A DNA stretch of 64,000 bases from Verrucomicrobiota bacterium (lineage in GTDB: Bacteria > Verrucomicrobiota > Verrucomicrobiia > Limisphaerales > Palsa-1400). The translations under genes were made by a program, and so were the position numbers. The DNA lies in contig JBEKYR010000021.1 of NCBI GenBank assembly GCA_049510745.1, positions 1 to 64,000 of the forward strand, read 5' to 3'. The notes under the pieces are model-generated. The model was not told the origin of the DNA. It saw only the letters and a program-made list of their open reading frames with translations, and did no database searches. Positions 152-17,472 of this stretch are shown in pieces. Every line of letters starts with the position of its first letter. The first letter of the stretch is position 1.

Positions 152-1983
152 TATCGCGAATTGGTCTTTCCAGAGAACGAACCTCGCTGGCGGATGCTCT
201 CCTCTTCGTGGAATTTCATCCGCGCCGAAAGAATTGCCGCGCGTCCAAGATAACCCACCACGCAGCCCGGGTTGTTGCGATCCACCACTGGCAACCTGCC
301 CACGTCGCGCTCCAGCATTTTTGTGAGCGCCGCGTATAACGGTTCGTCGGGATACGCGACGACCAGATCAATGCTGCCAGCTTCGGCCACGGTCATCTCC
401 GAATTCTGCTTTTGCCGGAGCGCCCGGACAATGTCCCCTCGCGTGATGATGCCAACGAGCCGATCCTGATCGTCCACAATCAAAGTTCCCTGTCGCCGAC
501 TTAAGTTGGAATCGCCGAGAGCGATCCGATCAGAAAGCTCTGAAAGTTTCATGGTCGCCGGGACGCTGGGCACTTCCTTGTCCATCACATCGCGCACGCG
601 GGCAAGTTCGAAAGGGTCAATGCTGTATTCGCGCGTGATGTGGTGACCGCGCCGGGCCAGCTTTTCGGTGAGGATGGAACGGCGCATGATCAGCACGGTG
701 ACACCAAGTGCTGCGACTGAACCGATCAACAGGGCGGGAAAAAGGTTGAAGTCCCGCGTCAATTCCACGGCGAAAACCATCGCAGTCAAAGGCGACCTCA
801 TCGTGCCACCCATCATCGCCGCCATGCCGATCAACGCCCACAGACCCGGGTCGCCCACGGGAATCCACGAACCGGCAAAAGCTCCGAGTGCTCCGCCCAT
901 AATGAGCAAAGGCGCCAGCACGCCTCCGGAAGTGCCGGAGCCCAACGCGATCGACCACACCAGCGCTTTGGCCACCAGCAACCCAATGACCACCGCCCCG
1001 ACTAGTTCACCGCGCAGCAAACTGTGGATGGTATCGTAACCGACGCCGAGCACGCGCGGTTCAATGAAGCCGCCCACGCCGACAAAGACTGCGCCAATGG
1101 CCGGCCACCACATCCAGTGAAACGGCAGCTTTTGAAAAATATCTTCGCAGGCGTACACGAGCATGGTCAACAGCCCGGACCCGAAGCCCGCCGCCACACC
1201 AAGGCCGGCGGCAATCGCCAATTCCGTGCCGGAAAGCGGTGCATGCGCCACCACTGGGAAAATCGGTCCGACGCCGAGCAACGGCACGCGCAGCACGGAG
1301 GCGACAATCGAAGCCACTGCCACGGGAATGAAACTGCGCGGTTTCCATTCGAATAACAATAGTTCCACCGCCAGCAAGACCGCCGCCACGGGCGTGGCGA
1401 AGACCGCAGACATGCCCGCCGCCGCACCGGCCACGAGCAGCGTTTTGCGCTCTGCCGCGCTCAGATGAAATTGTTGCGCGAAGATTGAGCCGAACGCGCC
1501 ACCCGTCATAATGATCGGACCTTCCGCGCCGAAGGGTCCGCCCGTGCCGATGGAAATGGCCGCCGAAAGCGGTTTGAGCAGAGCGACCTTAAGCTGAATG
1601 CGGCTGCGACCGAGCAGAATGGCTTCCAGGGCTTCAGGAATGCCGTGCCCGCGGATTTTCTCTGAACCAAACCGCGCCATCAGTCCGATGAGGAGCGCTC
1701 CCGCCACCGGCACGAGAACCACCCATAATCCCAGATGATTTCCTTGCGGCACGGCCGGGGCGGCGGACCATCGCTGATAAAAGGCCAGGTTTGTGATCGC
1801 GGCAATCAGCCAAAGCAAAGCGTAGGCGACAAGAGCACCGATGGCGCCAATCACCAGGGCCATGGCAGACAACAGCAGCACACGGCGGTCGGTGCTGAAA
1901 TCCGCCAGTTCATCTTCCATGACCGCGTCAGACACGGCCGTTTTGCCCGTTAAGACCGATGGGATTACTGATTCAGTTTGCAT
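148..1983 (-). CDS. ClC-family chloride channel/transporter with C-terminal CBS pair
   Basis: GHGIPE, GAEGP and GGVLAP motifs, many TM helices, CBS motifs GIITRGD and VGRLPVVD. Confidence 0.93.
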   Translation of the reverse strand: MQTESVIPSVLTGKTAVSDAVMEDELADFSTDRRVLLLSAMALVIGAIGALVAYALLWLIAAITNLAFYQRWSAAPAVPQGNHLGLWVVLVPVAGALLIGLMARFGSEKIRGHGIPEALEAILLGRSRIQLKVALLKPLSAAISIGTGGPFGAEGPIIMTGGAFGSIFAQQFHLSAAERKTLLVAGAAAGMSAVFATPVAAVLLAVELLLFEWKPRSFIPVAVASIVASVLRVPLLGVGPIFPVVAHAPLSGTELAIAAGLGVAAGFGSGLLTMLVYACEDIFQKLPFHWMWWPAIGAVFVGVGGFIEPRVLGVGYDTIHSLLRGELVGAVVIGLLVAKALVWSIALGSGTSGGVLAPLLIMGGALGAFAGSWIPVGDPGLWALIGMAAMMGGTMRSPLTAMVFAVELTRDFNLFPALLIGSVAALGVTVLIMRRSILTEKLARRGHHITREYSIDPFELARVRDVMDKEVPSVPATMKLSELSDRIALGDSNLSRRQGTLIVDDQDRLVGIITRGDIVRALRQKQNSEMTVAEAGSIDLVVAYPDEPLYAALTKMLERDVGRLPVVDRNNPGCVVGYLGRAAILSARMKFHEEESIRQRGSFSGKTNSRY

Positions 1984-1994
1984 TAAGCAACCGC

Positions 1995-2023
1995 ATAGTA
2001 TATCGTATTAAGATATATGTCAA
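1995..2023 (-). promoter_or_regulatory. sigma70-like promoter of the ClC gene containing a palindromic operator (probable MarR site)
   Basis: Minus strand TTGACA (2023-2018), 17 bp, TACTAT (2000-1995); palindrome TATATC-N7-GATATA at 1999-2017; divergent MarR gene adjacent. Confidence 0.65.
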
Positions 2024-2066
2024 ACAAGGGTTGGTTTCGGATGCGTAACTGTTAGACTGACGACCG

Positions 2067-2492
2067 ATGGAAAGACCCAGGCGAATCGACAAATCGCAGT
2101 ATGAAACGCTGGCCGCGTTTCGCTACGCGCTCCGGCGGTTCCTCCGTTTTAGCGAAGGAGCCGCCGAGGCGGCTGGCATTACGGCACAACAGCATCAGGC
2201 CTTGCTGGCCATTAAGGGCTTTCCCGCGCGCGACAAGATCACCGTGGGCGAGTTGGCCGAACGATTGCAACTTCGCCACCACAGCGCGGTTGGATTGATT
2301 GATCGGTTGGTGGCGGAGAAATTGGTCGTTCGTGAACCGTCCGCCGAGGATCGCCGCCAAGTTCTCGTTCAACTCACCAGTCGCGGCGAAGCTGTCCTCG
2401 AGAAACTTGCTTCCGTCCACCGCGAACAACTGAAACGAATCGGACCTGAAATCAGCCAATTGCTTGGGCGACTTGGCCGCACGGAAGAATAA
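2067..2492 (+). CDS. MarR-family transcriptional regulator
   Basis: wHTH TVGELAERLQLRHHSAVGLIDRL and wing EDRRQVLVQLT. Confidence 0.92.
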   Translation: MERPRRIDKSQYETLAAFRYALRRFLRFSEGAAEAAGITAQQHQALLAIKGFPARDKITVGELAERLQLRHHSAVGLIDRLVAEKLVVREPSAEDRRQVLVQLTSRGEAVLEKLASVHREQLKRIGPEISQLLGRLGRTEE

Positions 2493-2511
2493 TTGCCGGG
2501 CGTCTGATAGG

Positions 2512-3231
2512 CTATTCCCCGAGATTCCGCCGCAAGAGAGCATTCAACTTGGCCGGTGACAGGACCATGATGGTCTTGCCTTTGACGGTCAGAAGCTTCT
2601 GTTCCCGGAATTTTGCCAGAGTCCGCGATAAGGTTTCACTCACTGTGCTCAATTCCGCCGCCAGCACACGTTTGGCCATGGCCAGCTCAATCCGGACGGG
2701 CTGTTCGCTTTGGAGATTTGGGCATTTTTTCAGGAGCCAGTTCGCCAGTCGAGTTTCCACATCTTTGAGAGTCAGGTCTTCGAGTTGGCCGACCAGCACC
2801 CGCAAGTGGCTGCTCATCGAACCCAGCATGCGCAGCGCGAGTTCGGGTTGGCGCCGAAGCAACGCCAAAATGCCATCCTTCTGCACAAGCAACACCTGGG
2901 TCGATTCCAGCGCACGGGCATCAGCGGGGTAGCCCTTGTCCGACGCCAGCGCCACTTCGGCAAAGGAGTCACCCATGCGAAAGACGTGGATGATCTGCTC
3001 CTTGCCCGCTGCATTGACCCGGTGGACGTTGACGGAACCGCGCTGCACAATATAAAAGCCGACGGCCGGGGATCCTTCATGAAATAGGTAATCCCCTTTG
3101 GCCAGTGATTTTACCACGGTGACATCCGCAATGTGTTCGAGGTCTTGCGAAGGCAAGCCAGTAAATAGCCGGCCGCTTCGCAGCGCGGCTGTGAGGCCGA
3201 TCCTTTTCAGTTCTCCTAGAATAGGCGGCAT
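2512..3231 (-). CDS. Crp/Fnr-family transcriptional regulator (Dnr/NnrR/HcpR-like; no N-terminal Fe-S cysteine cluster)
   Basis: cNMP-binding-like domain (LFHEG...GDSFAE...YPADA) and HTH recognition helix SETLSR. Confidence 0.92.
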   Translation of the reverse strand: MPPILGELKRIGLTAALRSGRLFTGLPSQDLEHIADVTVVKSLAKGDYLFHEGSPAVGFYIVQRGSVNVHRVNAAGKEQIIHVFRMGDSFAEVALASDKGYPADARALESTQVLLVQKDGILALLRRQPELALRMLGSMSSHLRVLVGQLEDLTLKDVETRLANWLLKKCPNLQSEQPVRIELAMAKRVLAAELSTVSETLSRTLAKFREQKLLTVKGKTIMVLSPAKLNALLRRNLGE

Positions 3232-3243
3232 GGCGGGGATGAT

Positions 3244-3489
3244 TCAACCATCTTCACGCCAGAAGTAAACCATCCAGTCCGCGCCTGAACCGCGTTCCAC
3301 TTTGGAGGCGAAGCCCTCGGATCCAAGTTTCTCAATCAACGGCGAAGGCAGAAATGGCGCCACAATGATCAAGCCTTCCGCCGGCTTGAGCCGGCCCACG
3401 CGCTGGAGGATTTCGGGAAACGGTTCGACGCCCCGGCGAATGAGATTGCGGACATCAAACCGTTTAAACTGGCTGATCGGCGGCATCAT
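3244..3489 (-). CDS. DUF2249-like small protein
   Basis: FDVR...GVEPF...IVAPFLPSPL...GF pattern, similar to the N-terminal domain of 6100-6618. Confidence 0.75.
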   Translation of the reverse strand: MMPPISQFKRFDVRNLIRRGVEPFPEILQRVGRLKPAEGLIIVAPFLPSPLIEKLGSEGFASKVERGSGADWMVYFWREDG

Positions 3490-7373: not shown

Positions 7374-8915
7374 GTGAAGACCATGATTATTCGATCTATC
7401 CCAGTCCTAGCAGGCTTGGCATTCCTTATCAGCGGCCCGTCATCTGTTTATGCGCAAAACGAAATTGTCGCGCAGACGAACCTCGCAAACCTGATTGACC
7501 CGGAAGTCAGCGGAGTGGAGACCGCCGTCCTTGCGCAAGCGCCCAATGTTCCTTCGCCCATCAAGCGTAAATTTGCCACGAAAGTCATCGTCAATCTGGA
7601 GGTCAGAGAGGTCACCAAGCGGCTTGCCGATGGCGTCGATTATGTCTTCTGGACGTTTGGTGGCGATGTGCCGGGTAGTTTCATTCGCATCCGCGAAGGC
7701 GATCAGGTGGAGTTCCACTTGAACAACCATCAGAACAATAAGATGCCGCACAGCATTGACTTGCACGCGGTCAGCGGGCCGGGCGGTGGCGCGGCTTCGT
7801 CGTTTACCGCGCCGGGGCATTCGTCGCAGTTCTCGTTCAAGGCTCTTCATTCCGGCCTTTTTGTTTATCACTGCGCGACTGCGCCGGTTGGCATGCACAT
7901 CGCCAGCGGCATGTATGGTTTGATTCTCGTCGAGCCAACGGGAGGTTTGCCGCCGGTGGATCGGGAGTATTACGCCATGCAGGGCGAGTTTTACACCACG
8001 GGCCAGTATGGCGAGGAAGGCTTGCAGGGTTTCGACATGAACAAAGCGGTGGACGAAAGACCGCCGTATGTGGTGTTCAATGGCGCGGTGGACTCGCTCG
8101 TCGGCGATCAAGCCATGACGGCGAAAGCCGGCGAAACCGTCCGGTTATTCTTCGGCAACGGCGGGCCGAATCTTACTTCCTCGTTCCACATCATCGGTGG
8201 CCAATTCGACACGCTCTACGAAGACGGCACGATGACCAACGTATTGCATAACGTTCAAACCACGGCGGTGCCCCCTGGCTCGGCGGTCGTGGTGGATTTC
8301 AGGCTCAAGGCGCCAGGCACGTATGTTCTGGTTGATCACGCGATCTTCCGCGCGTTCAACAAGGGCGCTCTCGGCATGTTGAAAGTGGACGGCCCCCAAG
8401 ACCTGCTCGTCTACTCCGGCAAGGAGGTGGATGCCACCTACATTGGCAAGGCGGCCGACGCCGGTTCGGCAGCCGAGAAGAAAGTCGTCGCGTTGACTGC
8501 TGAGGTCGCCCGGGAGATTAAGAGCAACCCAAAAATCGCCGATTTGAGCAAGCAGATTCAATTCCAGAAAGGCAAGACGGTTTATATGCAAACGTGCTTT
8601 GTCTGCCATCAACCCACCGGTCAGGGCATCCCGGAGCAGATTCCTCCACTGGCGCTTTCGGACTTTCTCGCGACCCAGGACAAAGACAACGTTATTCGCG
8701 GCGTTTTGATGGGCCGCACCGGCAAGATCACTGTCAACGGCAAAACCTACAACGGCACCATGATTCCCCTGAACTACCTTACTGACGACCAAGTTGCCAA
8801 CGTGCTGACCTACGTGCGCAATAATTGGGGCAATTCGGGCGACGCCGTGAGTGTAACGGAAGTCGCCAAGATTCGCCACGAATCCGCTCCGCCGCCGGCC
8901 AATCAATATGAATAG
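7374..8915 (+). CDS. nirK: copper-containing nitrite reductase with C-terminal cytochrome c domain
   Basis: Signal peptide; [28 protein letters not shown] and VDH Cu-ligand/catalytic motifs; C-terminal CFVCH heme motif and distal Met (GTMIP). Confidence 0.95.
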
Positions 8916-9738
8916 ACGCGAAAACAGTCAAATGGCGGGTGCCGCCTTGAAAGCTTGGAATCGAAACTTGACGGCCGTGTTAATTGTCTTTCTTGGCGCG
9001 ATGGTCCAGAGCATCGGACAATCACCGCCCAGCGGGATGGCTTTGATTTCAAACGGCGTCTATCGCCCGCTGTTTCGAGCTGAATCCGATCCCAAAGAAG
9101 TTGTTGTCAAATCATTCTATTTGGACATCCTTCCCGTCGTCAATGGCGGCTTCCTTGAATTCGTTCGCGCCAATCCACGTTGGCGGCGTTCGCAGGTGAA
9201 AAGGATTTTCGCGGACGAATCGTATCTCAAGAATTGGGCAGCCGATCTCAACCCCGGCACCAATGCGCCCGCCAATGTCCCAGTGACTGAGGTTTCGTGG
9301 TTTGCCGCCAAAGCCTACGCGCAATGGAAGGGAGAACGATTGCCTAGTGTCGCTGAGTGGGAATATGCCGCGGCAGCCAGCCCGACACGCGCGGATGGCA
9401 AGGACGACACCAATTTCACACGCCAAGTGCTCGAATGGTATTCCACCCCCGCGCCGGCGCAGCTTCCCGCGGCCGGATTGGGCCATGCCAATTTCTGGGG
9501 CGTTCGCGATTTGCACGGACTGGTCTGGGAGTGGGTCGCCGATTTCAACACTGCGTTGGTCACCGGCGACGCGCGCAGCGATACCGGCCTGGATCGCCAG
9601 CTTTTTTGCGGCGCTGGCTCGCAAGGCGCCACGGACGTTCAAAATTATCCCGCCTTCATGCGCTACGGTTTTCGCAGTAGCCTCAAAGCGAACTACTCCG
9701 TCCACAACCTCGGCTTCCGTTGCGCGAAAGATTTATGA
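8908..9738 (+). CDS. formylglycine-generating-enzyme family protein (NirV-like)
   Basis: [32 protein letters not shown] and NLGFRCA motifs; overlaps the nirK stop. Confidence 0.88.
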
Positions 9739-10358
9739 AACCCACGCCAAAAACTATATTCCTTTCACTCGCAATCCTGTCTCTGGCGGGCTGCGCGGCT
9801 GAATCGTCTTCTCGTGCCGCCAAGTCGTCTTGTTGCGCGAAGGCCGAAGTGCCGGCCGCGTTCACCGATAAATCCATTTACCAAACTGAATCCGCCTGGA
9901 TGACGGACCAGCGGACGCAAATCAAGTTGGGCGCTCTCGCTGGCCGGCCGCAAGTCGTCGCCATGTTTTTCGCCCATTGCCAATTTGCCTGCCCGATTAT
10001 TGTCAGCGATATGAAACGCATCGAGGCGGCGTTGCCAACGGACGTATCCGGTCGAATCGGTTTCACCCTCGTTTCCTTCGACGCCAAGCGGGACACACCC
10101 CCGGCGCTGGCCGAATACAGGAAGACCCGGGATTTGCCGGCGAAAAGCTGGACCTTGATGTGCGGCCGCCCGGACGACGTGCTGGAGTTGTCGGCGCTGC
10201 TCGGCCTGAGCTTCAAAGAAAATGCGGACGGCCAATTTGCGCACTCCAATGTCATCACAATTCTCAACGCGCAAGGCGAGATCGTTCATCAACAGATCGG
10301 CTTGAATCAGGACATCCATGAAACCGTTCGCCTTCTGCAACAACTGGTAAAAAATTAA
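9735..10358 (+). CDS. SCO-family copper chaperone lipoprotein
   Basis: Lipobox LAGC; CQFACP (CxxxCP) and conserved His (FAHS). Confidence 0.9.
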   Translation: MKPTPKTIFLSLAILSLAGCAAESSSRAAKSSCCAKAEVPAAFTDKSIYQTESAWMTDQRTQIKLGALAGRPQVVAMFFAHCQFACPIIVSDMKRIEAALPTDVSGRIGFTLVSFDAKRDTPPALAEYRKTRDLPAKSWTLMCGRPDDVLELSALLGLSFKENADGQFAHSNVITILNAQGEIVHQQIGLNQDIHETVRLLQQLVKN

Positions 10359-10416
10359 CCCAAGTTAAGAAACATCCAAACAGGATTGCGCCGTCAAGCT
10401 CCTGACAAAGCGGGAA

Positions 10417-10830
10417 TTACACTGCCGGCGCACGCCTGAACCCGTCCAGCCAGTGCCGCAGGCTCATAACCGGATGTTCCCAGAGCATGCGCGGTCCGGC
10501 GTAACGCATCACCACCTTGACCTGCTCGCGTCGTGCTCGCTGATAACAATGGACCGGGCACTTGGCGCAGGTCGGTTTTTCTGCGCCGAACCGGCAGCGT
10601 TCCAGGCGCACACTGGCGTAATCCAAAAGCTGCTGGCATTCCGGGCACAGGGCCGCTGTCGCCTTATGATGATCCCGGCAATGGATTCTGATCATCGCCT
10701 CCATGGTCACCCATTCGCGGTTCAACCGCTTGCTGGGGAAAGCAACGGTTTTGGTTTCGGGCGTGACGTCAGCAAAAGTGTCCGATCCGGCTTGTTCAGC
10801 AGTCATTCTCATACCGTCACCTTCGCACAC
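10417..10830 (-). CDS. YgbA-like (nitrous-oxide-stimulated promoter family) Cys-rich protein
   Basis: MIRIHC..LCPECQQLLDYA..RLERC..KPTCAKCPVHCY..VMRYAGPRML; exact start uncertain. Confidence 0.85.
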   Translation of the reverse strand: MCEGDGMRMTAEQAGSDTFADVTPETKTVAFPSKRLNREWVTMEAMIRIHCRDHHKATAALCPECQQLLDYASVRLERCRFGAEKPTCAKCPVHCYQRARREQVKVVMRYAGPRMLWEHPVMSLRHWLDGFRRAPAV

Positions 10831-10846
10831 TAGCCGTCAAAGGCCT

Positions 10847-10915
10847 TTGATCCAGGTCAAGGTTTTGATCATTTCATGGCTGCGCAAGAAAGCGCAATTC
10901 GTTGACTTAGGTCAA
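10847..10915. promoter_or_regulatory. two Fnr/Dnr-type boxes between the divergent YgbA-like and DGC genes
   Basis: TTGATCCAGGTCAA (10847-10860) and TTGACTTAGGTCAA (10902-10915). Confidence 0.75.
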
Positions 10916-10970
10916 GATGCCGTTGGCCGGAGTGAGCGATAATTATACTTTAAGAAACAATTAAGGCTCT

Positions 10971-11540
10971 ATGAACAGTGACCATTCAAATTCTCCGGCC
11001 CCAAACAAACCGTCCACCGTGGTCTATGCCTGCTCCGGCTGCTCGGACGCCGGTGAGATCGCAGACCGTATCGCGCGCCAGCTCACTCGGGAGGGTGTGG
11101 CGCAGATGTCGTGCCTCGCCGGCATCGGTGGCCGCGTCAAAAGCCTGCTTTTAACGGCGGAAAAAGCGGAGCGGATCCTGGTCGTGGACGGCTGTCCGCT
11201 GAATTGCGCGCGGCGCACGCTCGAACTGGCTGGTTTCAAAAAGTTTGATCATCTCGAATTGCACAAACTCGGCATCCGCAAAGGTTCGGCGCCCGTGACA
11301 GGAGAGCGCATCGCGACCGGTGTCTCATCAGCGAAGAAAATCCTCGCGGGCGAAACAACGCCCCTCCCTCCGCAAAAACTTGACTCGCTTCAAACCAGTC
11401 CGGAGCCGGCGGATATTAAGATGGCTGCTCTAAGCTTAGATCTCACCCTCTCCGTCGGCAGGCCTTCGGCCAACGACCAAGTCGTGGTCGATCAGTTGGA
11501 GGATTTCACCATGGTGGGCGAATTGGCGTTGACTAAGTAG
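10971..11540 (+). CDS. DGC-domain putative zinc-binding protein (C-terminal ~60 aa may be read-through)
   Basis: YACSGCS, MSCLAGIGG and VVDGCPLNCA motifs. Confidence 0.82.
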   Translation: MNSDHSNSPAPNKPSTVVYACSGCSDAGEIADRIARQLTREGVAQMSCLAGIGGRVKSLLLTAEKAERILVVDGCPLNCARRTLELAGFKKFDHLELHKLGIRKGSAPVTGERIATGVSSAKKILAGETTPLPPQKLDSLQTSPEPADIKMAALSLDLTLSVGRPSANDQVVVDQLEDFTMVGELALTK

Positions 11541-11749
11541 ATGCGGCCAAACGAAGGCGTTCTTCCGATGGCGTAACCGAATAAAAAAGTGATGGTCTTT
11601 CATAAATCCATGACGTGGAATAATCCCTGGGTCACCGAGCAATCCGGATCATTCACGCGGCCTACCGACAACAGAGGATTGCTTCAGCAGGCTAACGCCG
11701 GGCCCTTCAACTTGCGAAAGGAGCGGGCCGAATTTAAGTTGAGCCAGCC

Positions 11750-12301
11750 ATGACAATTACAGAGTTGCTTCGGACGGAACACGCAGCTTTTAACGCCATT
11801 CTTGATGAAATCGAGACCGCTTTGCCCAGTGCCGCGACTTTGGGCGAACTTCGCATACTCGTCAACCTAATCGCGGGGTTTCTGCAACAACACGGTCACA
11901 AAGAAGAGGAAATCCTTTGCCCAGCCTTGGACCAAATGCAAGGCCAACGAGGACAAATGGAAGAATTGACTCAGGAACATGGCGAACTCGACCAACAAAT
12001 CCGCCAGGTGGCCAAAAACAGGGATCTAAAAAACGCTCGGCAGCAGCTTGGCCAACTCATCCAAGCGGTGCGCCAGCACTTCGACCACGAGGAGCGCCAA
12101 CTTTTCCCGCTGGCCGAGGAAGTGCTTCTGGCCGAAAACCTGGCTGCACTGGGCAGCGCGGCCGAAGAAACGGCCCGCCAGATGCTCGCGCATAATCGTG
12201 GGCGAGGCCAGCGTCTCCAGGATGGGCACGTCACGACAGCAGGCCATGACCACGTCGGCCGTGGCTCAGGGCCAGAGCGGCACCCACGACCAGTTGGGTG
12301 A
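11750..12301 (+). CDS. hemerythrin-domain protein with a chimeric 3' end
   Basis: EH, HGHKEEE, EH and HFDHEE motifs; 3' part overlaps an antisense phosphoketolase fragment. Confidence 0.8.
   Translation: MTITELLRTEHAAFNAILDEIETALPSAATLGELRILVNLIAGFLQQHGHKEEEILCPALDQMQGQRGQMEELTQEHGELDQQIRQVAKNRDLKNARQQLGQLIQAVRQHFDHEERQLFPLAEEVLLAENLAALGSAAEETARQMLAHNRGRGQRLQDGHVTTAGHDHVGRGSGPERHPRPVG
12179..12258 (-). pseudogene. 80-bp phosphoketolase gene fragment
   Basis: Encodes DVVMACCRDVPILETLASPTIMREHL; ungapped hand alignment to 52146-52225 gives about 67/80 identical bases. Confidence 0.85.
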
Positions 12302-13380: not shown

Positions 13381-14928
13381 CTAGTCTTTCCGAGATCGAG
13401 GCGTTGCAAATTCCCGCAGCACAGCCTGCACCTCCGGGGAACCGAAAATGGTTCGCGGCGGTGTCGCCCCGGCCTTTAGTAATGCCGCGACCGTCCCGGC
13501 AAAATCTGAGTTGTCCCTGAGACCGTCGCCCAGGGAACCGTGAATGGCCCAGCCGAGCGGCTCGCCCCCAAAATCGAAATCGACGACTTCAAGCGGCGGG
13601 TGGGAACCAAGGATCAGCCGCGTCATTTCAACTTGGCCTTGGAAGGCTGCCCAGTGCAGCGCGGTGCCGCCGTGCTGGCCGCGAGCGTCCACGGGCCAGC
13701 CGGCTTCCAACATCCGGCGGACCGTCTCGATATCGCGGTTTTGCGCGGCGTCCGGGAGTCGGCGTCCGTCCGCAGGCGCGAGTGATTTGGGGAGGTCCGG
13801 CGCCGCGGCTACCAGGCGGTCGAAAAGCGCGTTGTCCCCGAGTTCAAGCGCCAGCGAGAATTTTAGCGAATCGGAGCTGCGCTCCATCAAATAGCGCAGA
13901 ACCTCCCCGTGGCCGGATTCGTGGGCGAGCACGTGTGGAGTCTCGTTCGGGCCGAGCGTCCAAATATAAATGCTTCCGCCAGCGCGCGGGTTTTTCATTG
14001 GAAAGTGCTCGCGCGACACACTCATGTGAATGCGCGAGGGGTCCTCGTCGAGTTGGCGGCGGACCAGGTCCAGGTCGCCCAGCGCGGCGGCCATCAACAG
14101 GTCGGTGCGGCAGCCGCGCGAAACCAGGTATCGCGCAACCTCCCGGCGCTCGCGCATCATGTATTGGGCCGGAGTGGATTCGTGGTCGACGTCCAGCGCG
14201 TCAATGTCCGCGCCATGATCGAGGAGGAATCGCGCGACTTCCACCGAGCAGGCGAAGTGCAACGGCGTCTGGCCGTCTCCCCCGCGGGCGGCCACGACGC
14301 CAGGGTCGGCGGCGACGAGCTCGCGGAGCTTGTCAAACATTCCGAGCCGGGCGGCGGCGTGCGCGTCGACGCGGGCGCCGCGTGCGATCAAAAAGTCCGC
14401 CAGACCGTGGTCGTTATCGAGCACCCCGAAACTGCCGGCCCACCAGTGGCTGCGCGCGTTGATGTCCGCTCCGGAGCGGAGCAGGAGATCGATCATCTCG
14501 CGATTGGTCCGTTGGACCGCGGCGATCAAGGGCGTCGCGCCAAAACCGTAGTCAGGCAACGGTTCGTTAAGCCGGTCTTTCAACGCCGGGAATTTCTCCA
14601 GCAATGCGGCCACGCCGGCGGTGTCGTTGGCAAGGATGGCGGCTTGCAACGCGACTGCGGGATCATGCGAAGCGGCGAGCGTTGCGACGCGGGCCTTGAG
14701 TTTGGCCCAACTGGCGAATCCGTATTCTCGCGCCACGATGAGTTGGGCGGCAGCCAGCGAGAACTTGGCGCGGGCCAATTCGGACTCCGCGACGTTGGCA
14801 AAGTCTGGATGGAATTCGCGAAGGCGACGCACGGCATCGGGCTCGCGCGAACGGATGGATTGCAGGAATTCTTTGGCCTGTTTCTTGAGTTGCTCAAGAC
14901 TGGGCTTGGGCGGAAGCGATTTAGACAT
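13381..14928 (-). CDS. ankyrin-repeat protein with N-terminal LEQLKKQAK...AREYGFASW domain
   Basis: Ankyrin motifs GATPLIAA, GQTPLHFA and GGTALHWAA; distinct helical N-terminal domain. Confidence 0.9.
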   Translation of the reverse strand: MSKSLPPKPSLEQLKKQAKEFLQSIRSREPDAVRRLREFHPDFANVAESELARAKFSLAAAQLIVAREYGFASWAKLKARVATLAASHDPAVALQAAILANDTAGVAALLEKFPALKDRLNEPLPDYGFGATPLIAAVQRTNREMIDLLLRSGADINARSHWWAGSFGVLDNDHGLADFLIARGARVDAHAAARLGMFDKLRELVAADPGVVAARGGDGQTPLHFACSVEVARFLLDHGADIDALDVDHESTPAQYMMRERREVARYLVSRGCRTDLLMAAALGDLDLVRRQLDEDPSRIHMSVSREHFPMKNPRAGGSIYIWTLGPNETPHVLAHESGHGEVLRYLMERSSDSLKFSLALELGDNALFDRLVAAAPDLPKSLAPADGRRLPDAAQNRDIETVRRMLEAGWPVDARGQHGGTALHWAAFQGQVEMTRLILGSHPPLEVVDFDFGGEPLGWAIHGSLGDGLRDNSDFAGTVAALLKAGATPPRTIFGSPEVQAVLREFATPRSRKD

Positions 14929-15047
14929 GAGACCTTTCTGCTATGGCCTGGAGTCCGCTGGCAGGCAGCATCAAGGTTAATAATTTGTCTGACATTTTCA
15001 GGAAGGCTCAGCCCTTTCCGCGGACTCGGATGCGCCCTGAACGCGGG
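14929..15047 (-). promoter_or_regulatory. candidate structured 5' leader RNA of the ankyrin gene
   Basis: GAGUCCGC/GCGGACUC 8-bp helix (15020-15027 with 14951-14958) encloses hairpins GGAA-AG-GGC-UGA-GCC-UUCC and CUGA-AAAUG-UCAG just upstream of the AGAAAGG RBS. Confidence 0.5.
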
Positions 15048-15509
15048 TGACATTGAAGCAAAGAGCGAGGGGGCAAGTCAATGGAAATGCTAAACGCAGA
15101 ATTCCAAGTGCAGAATCATAGAGATAGAGGCGGCTGAATTCCAAATAAGGGTCAGGCTTCTGTTTTTCGTTTGCGACCTGGGCGCCCCGGATTTGCGGAC
15201 GACAACCTAGTGGGTGGTGACTTTTTTCGGCGGATCTGGCAACATACCCACCTCGAGGCAATTGGTCCCACGATCATGAAAAAGGCCAGTATTTCGAGCA
15301 AACGATCAATTCGGCCGTGGTCAAGATTTTCGGCACGAGCCCAGACGAACAAGTCGCCATCTGCCCTGGAAATTTGAGTTCCGGCATCGTCGGGTGAAAT
15401 TATCAAATCGCGAATTGGCCATTCGTGATCATTGACACCGAATCGGGCATCCGGCCTGGTGGCCGTGCGCAGCATCTTCGAACGGCGGCGTCTTTTTTAA
15501 TTGTGGCGC

Positions 15510-15538
15510 TTGACATACATAGCTACACAATGTAGAGT
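15510..15538 (+). promoter_or_regulatory. sigma70-like promoter of padR (probably leaderless) with inverted-repeat operator
   Basis: TTGACA, 17 bp, TAGAGT, then ATG 6 bp later; TACAT-N9-ATGTA at 15516-15534. Confidence 0.7.
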
Positions 15539-15544
15539 GCGGGC

Positions 15545-15877
15545 ATGATTGAAAAAGAACTCGTGGCCGCCTCGACGGAGCCGTTGATTCTGTCCTTGCT
15601 CACCAGGGGCGAAAATTACGGTTATGAACTGATTCAGGAGGTCAAGCGACTCTCCGGCGACAAAATCCAATGGACGGACGGGATGCTTTATCCGGTATTG
15701 CATCGGATGGAGGATAACAGCTGGATCAAGTCGCGCTGGGTGGAAATCGAGAACGGACGCAAGCGCAAATATTATTCCATCAAGAAGGACGGCCATCAGG
15801 CCCTCAAGGAAAAGCGCGAACAATGGACCCTGCTTTCGTCCGTTTTCAACGGTCTGTGGAAAGGGCAAAATGTTTAA
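15545..15877 (+). CDS. PadR-family transcriptional regulator
   Basis: ENYGYELIQ..GMLYPVLHRME..GRKRKYYSI. Confidence 0.93.
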   Translation: MIEKELVAASTEPLILSLLTRGENYGYELIQEVKRLSGDKIQWTDGMLYPVLHRMEDNSWIKSRWVEIENGRKRKYYSIKKDGHQALKEKREQWTLLSSVFNGLWKGQNV

Positions 15878-16607
15878 CCTTGAACAAAAAATCTCGGAAT
15901 GGCGGCAGCAGACGAAGGCCGCCGGTGTGAAAAGCCCGGAAATATTGGACGAACTGGAAAGCCATTTGCGTGAGGACGTGGAACGGCTGCTACAATCCGG
16001 CGTGAGCGCGGAGCAAGCTTTCGAAATCGCCGTGCAGCGCATCGGGCGACCTGCCGCGCTCCAGGACGAATTCGCCAAAGCCGGGGCAACCAAGTGGAGG
16101 CGGCTGCAACGTTGGAAGGAGGCGCTGCTGGTCTTCTTGGGCTTTCCGCTTCCGTTTCCGAACGCTTTGACCGCCGGCGCGCGGGAAACGCTGGAACTCG
16201 GAGGCAAGGAGGCCCTTGGTTTTCATCACGATTTTATCGGGACGGAACATGTTTTGCTGGGGCTATTGGAATTGAAGGCCGGCGTTGTGCGCGGGGTCTT
16301 GCAAAGAATGGGCGTGGATCACAAAACTGTCCGGACTGAAATCGAAAAGATCGTGGGGCAGTGGCCTATGCACCAGACTATGCGCACTCCGCCCTATACG
16401 CCGCGCGTCAAACGAGCCCTGGTGCTGGCTGGTTCAGAAGCAAAGGCGTTGAGCCAAATTCACGTCGGCCCCGAGCACATTTTTCTGGGATTGCTGCGCG
16501 AGGGAGGGGGCGTGGCGGCGGTCGTTTTGAAATCTCTGGGCGTCAATATGCAAACCGCGCGCGCGGAGATTCTTAAGGAACTGGGCCGGAGCCAGCCTGG
16601 GGCTTGA
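15870..16607 (+). CDS. permease-prefix-domain protein fused to a Clp N-terminal repeat domain
   Basis: ELESHLREDV..AFEIAVQRIGRP..L..EF; Clp-N repeats HDFIGTEHVLLGLL and HVGPEHIFLGLL. Confidence 0.85.
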   Translation: MFNLEQKISEWRQQTKAAGVKSPEILDELESHLREDVERLLQSGVSAEQAFEIAVQRIGRPAALQDEFAKAGATKWRRLQRWKEALLVFLGFPLPFPNALTAGARETLELGGKEALGFHHDFIGTEHVLLGLLELKAGVVRGVLQRMGVDHKTVRTEIEKIVGQWPMHQTMRTPPYTPRVKRALVLAGSEAKALSQIHVGPEHIFLGLLREGGGVAAVVLKSLGVNMQTARAEILKELGRSQPGA

Positions 16608-16629
16608 GACGCAACCACAAACATAAACT

Positions 16630-17472
16630 ATGCTTGACCTCGAACAGAAAATCACGGAATGGCGGCGCCAAATGCTGGCCGCCGGCATCAAACCTCCCAT
16701 GACCTTGGATGAATTGGAAAATCATCTGCGCGAGGACATCCGCGCGCATATTTCTGCTGGCAACTCGGAGGAGCAAGCGTTCCATCTTGCGGTTTCGCGC
16801 GTGGGAACTCCCGGAGCTTTGCGAACGGAGTTCCGCAAGTTGAAGCGTCCGGCGTGCTGGCCGGAGAAAATCGGCCGCTGGCTTTTCGCGGTTTTGGTCA
16901 TGGTGATGGCGGTCTGGTTGTCGCGACGCATGCTGGCCGGAAGATTGAGCCTTCTTTTGGCAGTGCATGTCTTTACTATAACGCTCGGCTACGGCGCGGG
17001 CTTTTTTGCCGGGGGATTCGGCATATTTTATGTCTGCTACAGACTGTTTCACGCCTTGTCTCTGGACCGCCGACAATCGTTGCACCGCGCCGTGCTTTTA
17101 TTCAGCCAGCTTTCGGCTGGACTGGTGATCGCGGGCTTTGTGCTGGCGATGGTGTGGTCCCATCAACACTATGGAAAATATTTGTTAGGCGATCCCAAGG
17201 AAGCGGGAGGATTGGGTGTGGCGATCTGGTTCGTCGTTCTGTCGGTCATGCAGCGACGCCGCATGAGCGAACGCGCCGTGATGCTAATGTGCCTCGGGGG
17301 CAATATCATGGTCAGCCTGGCTTGGTTCGGCGCCAACTTTCTTGACGCCAGCCGAAAAATGCAAACCAGCACAGTGGGCTACTGGCCCGTTGCATTCGCG
17401 GTTTTCCTTGGGATACAAATCTTATTCCTCGTGATGGGCCTGGCCCCCGCCCCTGAAAAAGTGGCAAAGTAG
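16630..17472 (+). CDS. permease-prefix-domain membrane protein with CcsA/CcmC-like segment
   Basis: ELENHLREDI..AVSRVGTP; LAVHVFTITLGY and AMVWSHQHYGKYLLGDPKE resemble a degenerate WGxxWxWDPKE motif. Confidence 0.7.
   Translation: MLDLEQKITEWRRQMLAAGIKPPMTLDELENHLREDIRAHISAGNSEEQAFHLAVSRVGTPGALRTEFRKLKRPACWPEKIGRWLFAVLVMVMAVWLSRRMLAGRLSLLLAVHVFTITLGYGAGFFAGGFGIFYVCYRLFHALSLDRRQSLHRAVLLFSQLSAGLVIAGFVLAMVWSHQHYGKYLLGDPKEAGGLGVAIWFVVLSVMQRRRMSERAVMLMCLGGNIMVSLAWFGANFLDASRKMQTSTVGYWPVAFAVFLGIQILFLVMGLAPAPEKVAK

Follow-up and report, generated by a model that had tools for sequence, protein, structure and literature searches.

In E. coli, the S15 and S4 leaders form a pseudoknot that overlaps the translation initiation region and is tied to the protein encoded behind it. 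Such autoregulatory ribosomal-protein leaders imitate sites on rRNA, and the genes that they serve have housekeeping functions. The ZTP (pfl), preQ1-II and SAM-II riboswitches consist of a 5' domain, a variable linker and a 3' hairpin, with a pseudoknot near the Shine–Dalgarno (SD) sequence. TipA and AlbA are self-induced regulators in which a MerR domain acts on DNA. The COG3860 motif (RF02940, Cis-reg in Rfam) reportedly has PMC5737381 as its source. According to passages of PMC7708055 and PMC11228461, a 5' pseudoknot and a loose linker form the S1/30S standby site of tisB, and the pseudoknot is needed for translation; the same passages describe a pseudoknot in timP that is required for translation from a hidden ribosome-binding site (RBS).

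The window analysed here is a stretch of 64,000 nucleotides from a Verrucomicrobiota bacterium (contig JBEKYR010000021.1). It contains a leader of 116 nt (15044–14929, minus strand) directly 5' of the ATG of an ankyrin gene. Like the S15 and S4 leaders, this is a pseudoknotted leader at the initiation region, tied to the protein encoded downstream; unlike them, it goes with an uncharacterised domain that occurs in fusion with many unrelated partners. It shares with the ZTP, preQ1-II and SAM-II riboswitches the 5' domain and 3' hairpin, the variable linker and the pseudoknot near the SD sequence, but it has no Rfam match, its strands are ordered differently, and the genes behind it show no metabolic theme. 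With tisB and timP, as those passages describe them, it shares the 5' pseudoknot and the RBS hidden in a stable structure, whereas their antisense-RNA control and small toxins were not seen here. TipA and AlbA, like the module proposed below, join a nucleic-acid-binding N-terminus to a ligand-binding C-terminus and control their own gene; they act on DNA, whereas the conserved element of the present system is an RNA fold.

The window showed no Rfam match at the gathering score, and the region 14800–15300 gave only a chance snoRNA match (E 9.4). Searches of Rfam 15 with 18 loci of the long and short forms of the leader gave no match at E ≤ 1, and with 16 Glyoxalase_8 and DUF1835 loci none was located on the leaders at E ≤ 2. 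A literature search found no description of the leader or of the domain encoded behind it. The main-text portions of PMC5737381 and PMC11109978, and one supplement of PMC8632094, contain none of the search terms; the supplements of PMC5737381, of PMC11109978 and of the preprint 10.64898/2026.10.21.760802 may hold related motifs. That preprint reports 1.52 million unnamed motif clusters, one of which precedes glyoxalase, monooxygenase and NmrA genes. The leader is real, widespread and uncatalogued, and it represents a structured RNA class for which a likely protein partner can be named.

Fold of the leader and start of the transcript

The fold of the long form comprises four hairpins and two pseudoknots, counted as seven helices (P1, PK1, P2, PK2, P3, and the lower and upper parts of P4). 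All coordinates of the leader are on the minus strand. The leader starts with the hairpin P1 (15044–15032; GCGU-UCAGG-GCGC, stem GCGU/GCGC), in which 3 of 4 pairs show two-sided changes. The P1 loop UCAGG (15040–15036) is the 5' strand of PK1, and its partner is CCUGA (15002–14998); all 4 of the 4 pairs are changed on both sides in both alignments. P2 (UCC/GGA, 15030–15017) shows two-sided changes at 3/3 and 2/3 pairs in the two alignments. Its loop holds GAGUCCGC (15027–15020), the 5' strand of the kissing pseudoknot PK2, and the 3' strand GCGGACUC (14958–14951) is located in the loop of P4; 6 of 7 pairs have two-sided changes in alignment A3. The hairpin P3 (GGGC/GCCU, 15014–15004) follows a conserved AA and is paired in 97–98% of cells. 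A variable, unconserved linker (14997–14978; median about 18 nt, 58% A+U) would be a candidate ribosome standby region. In P4 (14977–14932), the anti-SD strand ACCUU..UGCU.GCCUG is paired with CAGGC..AGCA..AAGGU, which buries the SD-like AGAAAGG (14939–14933) located 11 nt past GCGGACUC. The start codon ATG follows at 14928.

All the features named in the first-pass annotation are present in the window letters. Its 5' hairpin is P1. It had also drawn GAGUCCGC and GCGGACUC as the arms of an 8-bp helix closing a junction; both arms are real, but they form the loop–loop kiss between P2 and P4 and not a closing helix. PK1 and the RBS-pairing P4 had been missed. The multi-branch fold was dropped in favour of P4 plus the kiss, because P4 covaries.

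Folded alone as a single sequence, the leader was no better than its shuffles (z = 0.24), and therefore the structural evidence comes from homologues. In the first alignment (A3; 58 leaders after thinning to about 80% identity), 86.3% of cells were paired as against 78.2% after shuffling, and in the second (86 matches, drawn from 88 sources that were not in the training set and mostly independent of the first) 93.2% as against 80.4%; the observed value was reached by 0 of 500 shuffles in each case, counts that are not probabilities, as the shuffles ignore kinship and related sequences are not independent. Slid controls were paired in 37–47% of cells. In the first alignment, 32 of 36 pairs showed two-sided changes. 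The search pattern fixed PK2 in most of the second alignment, and the support for PK2 is that of the first. The search model was built without pseudoknots; the window leader scores 90.8 bits against it, being within the training set. The PK1 pairs, though absent from the model, rank among the highest by mutual information in alignment A5. Mutual information over 86 and 94 sequences showed no further helix except one extra P1 pair. These results indicate that the leader is conserved and covarying among homologues, a point whose failure would have refuted the annotation, and covariation supports all seven helices.

The calculated stability of P4 is −17.6 kcal/mol in the window, and the median over 94 homologues is −20.8. 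Paired with its own partner strand, P4 reaches −18.6 as against −13.1 with a swapped partner (0 of 5000 permutations). An anti-anti-SD switch, in which the core strand GCGGAAAG pairs with the anti-SD, was not supported, as own pairing (−9.36) was close to permuted pairing (−9.21; 832 of 5000 permutations). In the permutation and mutual-information tests, no conserved alternative fold that would open P4 was found for the long form.

Upstream of P1, a −35 hexamer TTGACT (15081–15076, minus strand) is separated by an 18-nt spacer from a weak −10-like hexamer TTCAAT (15057–15052). This promoter, proposed in the first-pass annotation, was not called by a consensus scan of the window because the −10 hexamer is weak. 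Its position is nevertheless that of the homologues. Among 80 homologous leaders having sufficient flank, TTG[ACT][CA] was found 52–38 nt before the P1 3' strand in 46 (2, 2, 6 and 4 in four control windows), and TANNNT at −29 to −15 relative to the P1 3' strand in 55 (controls 8, 5, 7 and 5). Both hexamers of the window, at −46 and −22, coincide with the peaks of these distributions. The homologous promoter positions therefore place the start at P1, upstream of the entire fold and not downstream of the helix, and in the window transcription would start near 15045. One RNA contig from a near relative spans 14797–15036 and so includes part of the coding region. As the neighbouring PadR region is covered likewise and DNA carry-over is possible, it is weak evidence for the transcript.

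Several ribozyme classes contain two pseudoknots, as this leader does, and a self-cleaving ribozyme was considered on that ground. The strand order of the HDV-like and pistol ribozymes differs from that of the leader. No Rfam ribozyme is matched, the 5' end is explained by the promoter, and few unpaired bases of the leader are invariant. A ribozyme is highly improbable.

The N-terminal domain and its linkage to the RNA

The gene behind the leader is a 515-aa ORF (14928–13381, minus strand), in which an N-terminal helical domain (residues 1–85, 14928–14674) precedes ankyrin repeats recognized by Pfam. The ORF starts with the motifs that the annotation had described as a helical domain. The domain has a three-helix core and two optional inserted helices. 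No family scores above its cut-off for the domain; residues 1–85 match Pfam Glyoxalase_8 (PF20066) at 13.7 bits, N-terminal part only, where the cut-off is 23.7. In a profile comparison, the domain is homologous to the N-terminus of Glyoxalase_8 (97.3%, E 2.4e-11). Among 50%-identity representatives, 4468 relatives were found at E ≤ 0.001; the domain, with its thousands of relatives (4468 clusters), has no family of its own. It is present in 11 of 401 genomes of the phylum of the window. In a species-genome scan, in which the best 80 of at least 566 domain relatives were kept, the relatives came from Verrucomicrobiota (the closest among the matches listed, 71%), Acidobacteriota, Planctomycetota, Chloroflexota, Poribacteria, Alphaproteobacteria and others. 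The upstream regions of the domain relatives have one motif in common.

The predicted structure of the 85-aa domain contains five helices (pLDDT 87.8), and that of a natural 55-aa form contains three (pLDDT 83.2). The best comparisons of the domain with helix-turn-helix and other known nucleic-acid-binding folds gave Z 3.6 (rmsd 4.4, 58 aligned) and Z 4.6 (rmsd 2.6, 48 aligned), neither of them a clear match. Foldseek gave no match at E ≤ 0.001, a PDB sequence search gave nothing clear, and an Atlas search returned unnamed clusters only. The net charge of the domain has a median of +3 (10th–90th percentile −3 to +7), as compared with −2.7 per 80 aa elsewhere in 40 domain proteins. Two or three copies of the domain are present in 37 of 150 proteins. 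With the full protein as the query, Legionella ankyrin effectors of NCBIfam scored far below the cut-off, and the match was put down to generic repeats. The N-termini of two Glyoxalase_8-type proteins (L292, L298) weakly match the N-terminus of the NCBIfam PRK05973 DNA helicase, which may carry the same domain.

The linkage of RNA and domain was analysed from both sides. Starting from the domain (97 sources, 58 of them also used to build the model and many of the rest closely related), the RNA is located directly before the domain gene in 93 of 97 sources, and in 95 when operons are counted; two loci (L066, L088) are without an adjacent RNA. In the two operon cases, which are close relatives (L091, L095), the RNA heads an operon in which the second gene consists of the domain and nothing else. 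A free-standing domain ORF in an operon led by the RNA fits a trans-acting regulator. The genes at these loci (1823–3280) are a 336-aa SnoaL-like gene, the domain-only ORF of 95–97 aa and a dehydrogenase-like frame.

Starting from the RNA, a pattern scan gave at least 120 metagenome stretches and 10 viral-contig stretches, from which 40 without flanks were left out; 90 were thus examined, and 75 of these were confirmed with the model. The domain begins directly behind the RNA in 73 of these 75, a proportion for the domain-linked subtype only, since the pattern was derived from domain-linked leaders. The remaining two are a contig end and an ankyrin remnant behind the RNA. Two weak model matches with no domain behind (L104, L105) were treated as probable chance. 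In one genome (G080), nine RNA copies with differing loop and kiss letters were observed; eight have the domain behind, and the ninth (L114) has no domain ORF. The model (R1) misses diverged leaders (L249 and the Glyoxalase_8 set), and a blank means that no leader was found with R1. The genome of the window contains one RNA copy and one domain copy, and because both are single, no regulon was found.

In 31 proteins, the partners of the domain are ankyrin, VOC, DUF1835, Lon-N (the Lon substrate-binding domain), BFN plus Clp_N, a carboxypeptidase-regulatory-like domain, or none known. DUF1835 served as a control, with 16 genes from 401 Pseudomonadota genomes and two plasmid genes. Genes with the domain were preceded by the RNA in 5 of 7 cases (absent at L274 and at L278, where the domain is degenerate), and those without the domain in 0 of 11. 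DUF1835 has also been reported as an extension of ECF sigma factors. The first-pass annotation had suggested a pair of leader RNA and N-terminal domain. By these sequence comparisons, it is well supported that the RNA tracks the N-terminal domain, and not the ankyrins, across unrelated C-terminal partners. The ankyrin repeats are one of many swappable partners and are inessential to the pairing of RNA and domain.

The annotation had offered an orphan riboswitch as the alternative. Riboswitches usually precede several unrelated gene families. In the present case, 73 of 75 matches are followed by a first ORF that contains the domain, and DUF1835 genes without the domain have no RNA (0 of 11), so that an RNA almost never found before genes lacking the domain weakens this alternative. 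A riboswitch for a small molecule or an ion, perhaps a toxic electrophile, with the domain handling the ligand, would account for the compact double-pseudoknot core at the transcript start, for the variable linker to the SD hairpin and for a core that is kept while the 3' platform changes, and the VOC partners suggest detoxification. On the other hand, the loop and pseudoknot letters exchange freely among the three families described below, and the candidate anti-anti-SD pairing is without covariation by the permutation test above. We consider a riboswitch rather unlikely.

Related leaders and the COG3860 motif

In a short form of the leader, found before 12 domain-plus-VOC genes including Rhizobium johnstonii 3841 RL_RS31485 (L030, 1990–2069; L089, 2429–2515, minus strand; L245, 2421–2500; and 9 more), PK1, P2 and P3 are kept and P4 is absent. 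The 5' core is therefore the common part. The short form is paired in 96% of cells, with few changes. No clear SD was observed in 7 of 12, and a GCGCCC adjoining the start codon is able to pair with the 3' strand of P1. A competing fold of this kind is possible in the short form; the competing 3' strand is paired in 91.5% of cells, with one two-sided change. A diverged long form, with the PK1 letters strand-swapped and a different kiss, was observed at L275 (1357–1500) and, by eye, near 2330–2476 of L249 (Vibrio campbellii).

A different idea is that of a structural RNP, in which the leader, whole or processed to a 5' fragment, would remain on the domain and work with the C-terminal partner. 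An elaborate tertiary fold kept with one domain, with no other RNA copy in the genome, agrees with that idea. However, the conserved fold always reaches the start codon, pairing the SD or, in the short form, the bases before the AUG, and the RNA contig that runs from 15036 into the coding region speaks weakly against a separate piece. A structural RNP is quite improbable.

The Glyoxalase_8 N-terminus was found in 14 of 151 genomes. Its leaders in Pseudomonadota (L292–L303 and L306) are a sister form with the same strand order and both pseudoknots, in which GGUGAA is conserved and an SD hairpin is present. Partner tests were performed on 11 leaders, with omission of a divergent one (L297), a near copy of L299 (L300), a C-terminal match only (L305) and two of the DUF2087 group (L304, L307). 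PK1 had 4.82 pairs with its own partner as against 3.07 with swapped partners (0 of 20000 permutations), and PK2 had 5.64 as against 4.68 (8 of 20000).

The N-terminus of DUF2087 matches that of Glyoxalase_8 at 95.0% in the profile comparison, whereas directly against the window domain the match is weak (4.9%, E 0.008). Both pairings are present in 6 of 6 DUF2087 leaders according to an exact-complement scan, and 5 of 6 pass the gathering score of RF02940 (42.5 bits). The window itself does not match RF02940 at that score or at E ≤ 10, and its gene is without DUF2087. Hence the claim that the leader belongs to no known RNA family holds for the window leader, for which no Rfam match exists, while its probable distant relatives, the DUF2087 leaders, mostly match RF02940 and the COG3860 motif looks distantly related.

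In the COG3860 motif, a PK1-like pairing is possible between the loop of the 5' hairpin (GCAG) and a CUGC strand that comes behind an A-rich run. Like the window leader, the motif has a small hairpin and a GC strand of 6–7 nt that kisses a downstream loop, and it precedes a homologous N-terminal domain, the link being the Glyoxalase_8 N-terminus. The two differ in the position of P3: in the window leader it comes after P2, whereas in the motif it lies inside the segment that separates the kissing strand from the A-rich run. The RF02940 model (54 nt) covers the 5' core only and includes neither the SD hairpin nor the kiss partner. In leaders of this type (L304, L308–L311 and L313, the gene of L313 appearing split), the motif was observed to extend about 100 nt past the Rfam model, to a hairpin reaching the SD; the loop of this hairpin is complementary to the GC strand of the motif over 6–7 bp, and the letters change together. 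By topology and homologous domain, the window leader and the COG3860 motif would fall in one wider clan. Their common descent is likely, not proven, and the leader is probably a distant relative of this orphan Rfam motif. The pairing of RNA topology with the domain appears to survive deep divergence across three homologous domain families.

The main caveat on this linkage is that the RNA lies next to the domain gene, and joint movement as a cassette without contact would by itself predict their co-occurrence. In such a protein-independent cassette, the promoter, the pseudoknot standby, the SD hairpin and the first 55–85 codons would move as a block and give a fixed low or a stress-tuned translation, and the domain would serve dimerization, localization or turnover. 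The two or three domain copies in 37 of 150 proteins may point to such a structural role, and the 5' pseudoknots of tisB and timP drive translation without a cognate protein, according to the passages cited above (PMC7708055, PMC11228461). A cassette does not explain, however, why the coupling extends across families whose domains barely align directly (4.9%), nor does it account for the operon in which the domain stands alone as an ORF. We regard it as unlikely.

Proposed control of translation

Two properties of an autoregulatory leader are found here: linkage to one domain is strict, and the structure overlaps the initiation region, with P4 pairing the SD. The mRNA presents a pseudoknotted core (P1, PK1, P2 and P3), a loose linker and an SD-hiding hairpin whose loop kisses the core, and the first 55–85 codons specify a three-helix domain, small and mildly basic, followed by a swappable partner, which may also be DUF2087. 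Most likely, the domain whose coding sequence follows the leader has this leader as its target. We lean, with modest confidence, towards a self-regulating RNA–protein module, in which the domain would bind its own leader and set translation, gated by the swappable C-terminal partner. This reading is preferred because the coupling holds across unrelated partners and three domain families, the domain-less controls lack the RNA, and each gene has a single copy. On the other side stand the four domain genes without an adjacent RNA (L066, L088, L274 and L278), the RNA copy with no domain ORF (L114), the failure to find a second conserved fold by which P4 would open, the lack of a clear match between the domain and an RNA-binding fold, and the charge of the domain, which ranges from −3 to +7.

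In the self-regulating module, the domain would bind the core of its own leader, whereby the amount of protein is set, and the partner domain would gate this binding through occupancy by its substrate or target. Since P4 is too stable to open unaided and no alternative fold was found, an active initiation route is needed. Initiation would most likely proceed through a standby platform for S1/30S, formed by the linker together with the 5' pseudoknot, as in tisB. In one branch, by this analogy, free protein on the core would block the standby route and repress translation; in the other, loaded protein would unlock the kiss, and translation would rise by autoinduction. Repression would take a little over half of the weight given to the module.

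A broader picture, tentative at best, is a widespread clan of one-component regulators composed of a new three-helix RNA-binding domain and interchangeable sensors or scavengers, which would act on an RNA pseudoknot where other such regulators act on a DNA operator, and in which unlocking of the kiss switches on own translation. The domain would sense the occupancy of its partner (ankyrin, VOC, Lon-N, Clp_N, DUF1835 or DUF2087) and unlock the kiss-clamped SD hairpin, and the COG3860 motif would be one branch.

If the self-regulating module is correct, a domain that binds its own leader would also explain the COG3860 motif, an orphan in Rfam. Some of the carriers are in culture (Rhizobium johnstonii 3841 RL_RS31485, Variovorax paradoxus INQ48_38200, Azospirillum thermophilum and Pelagimonas varians), and therefore a short RNA and a 55-residue domain are sufficient for a test. 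A portable pair of RNA and small domain that sets translation would be a compact tool for synthetic circuits.

Two other clusters were observed in the window. On the plus strand at 15510–17472, a divergent operon has a strong sigma-70-like promoter (15510–15538) and a PadR gene (15545–15877); the genes after PadR have a common N-terminal 'LEQKI.EWR.Q' segment, and one of them is fused to Clp_N repeats. The other cluster (7374–12301, plus strand) encodes, by eye, a copper nitrite reductase–cytochrome c fusion, an FGE-sulfatase-type protein and an SCO protein, and continues with DGC-domain and hemerythrin genes according to Pfam.
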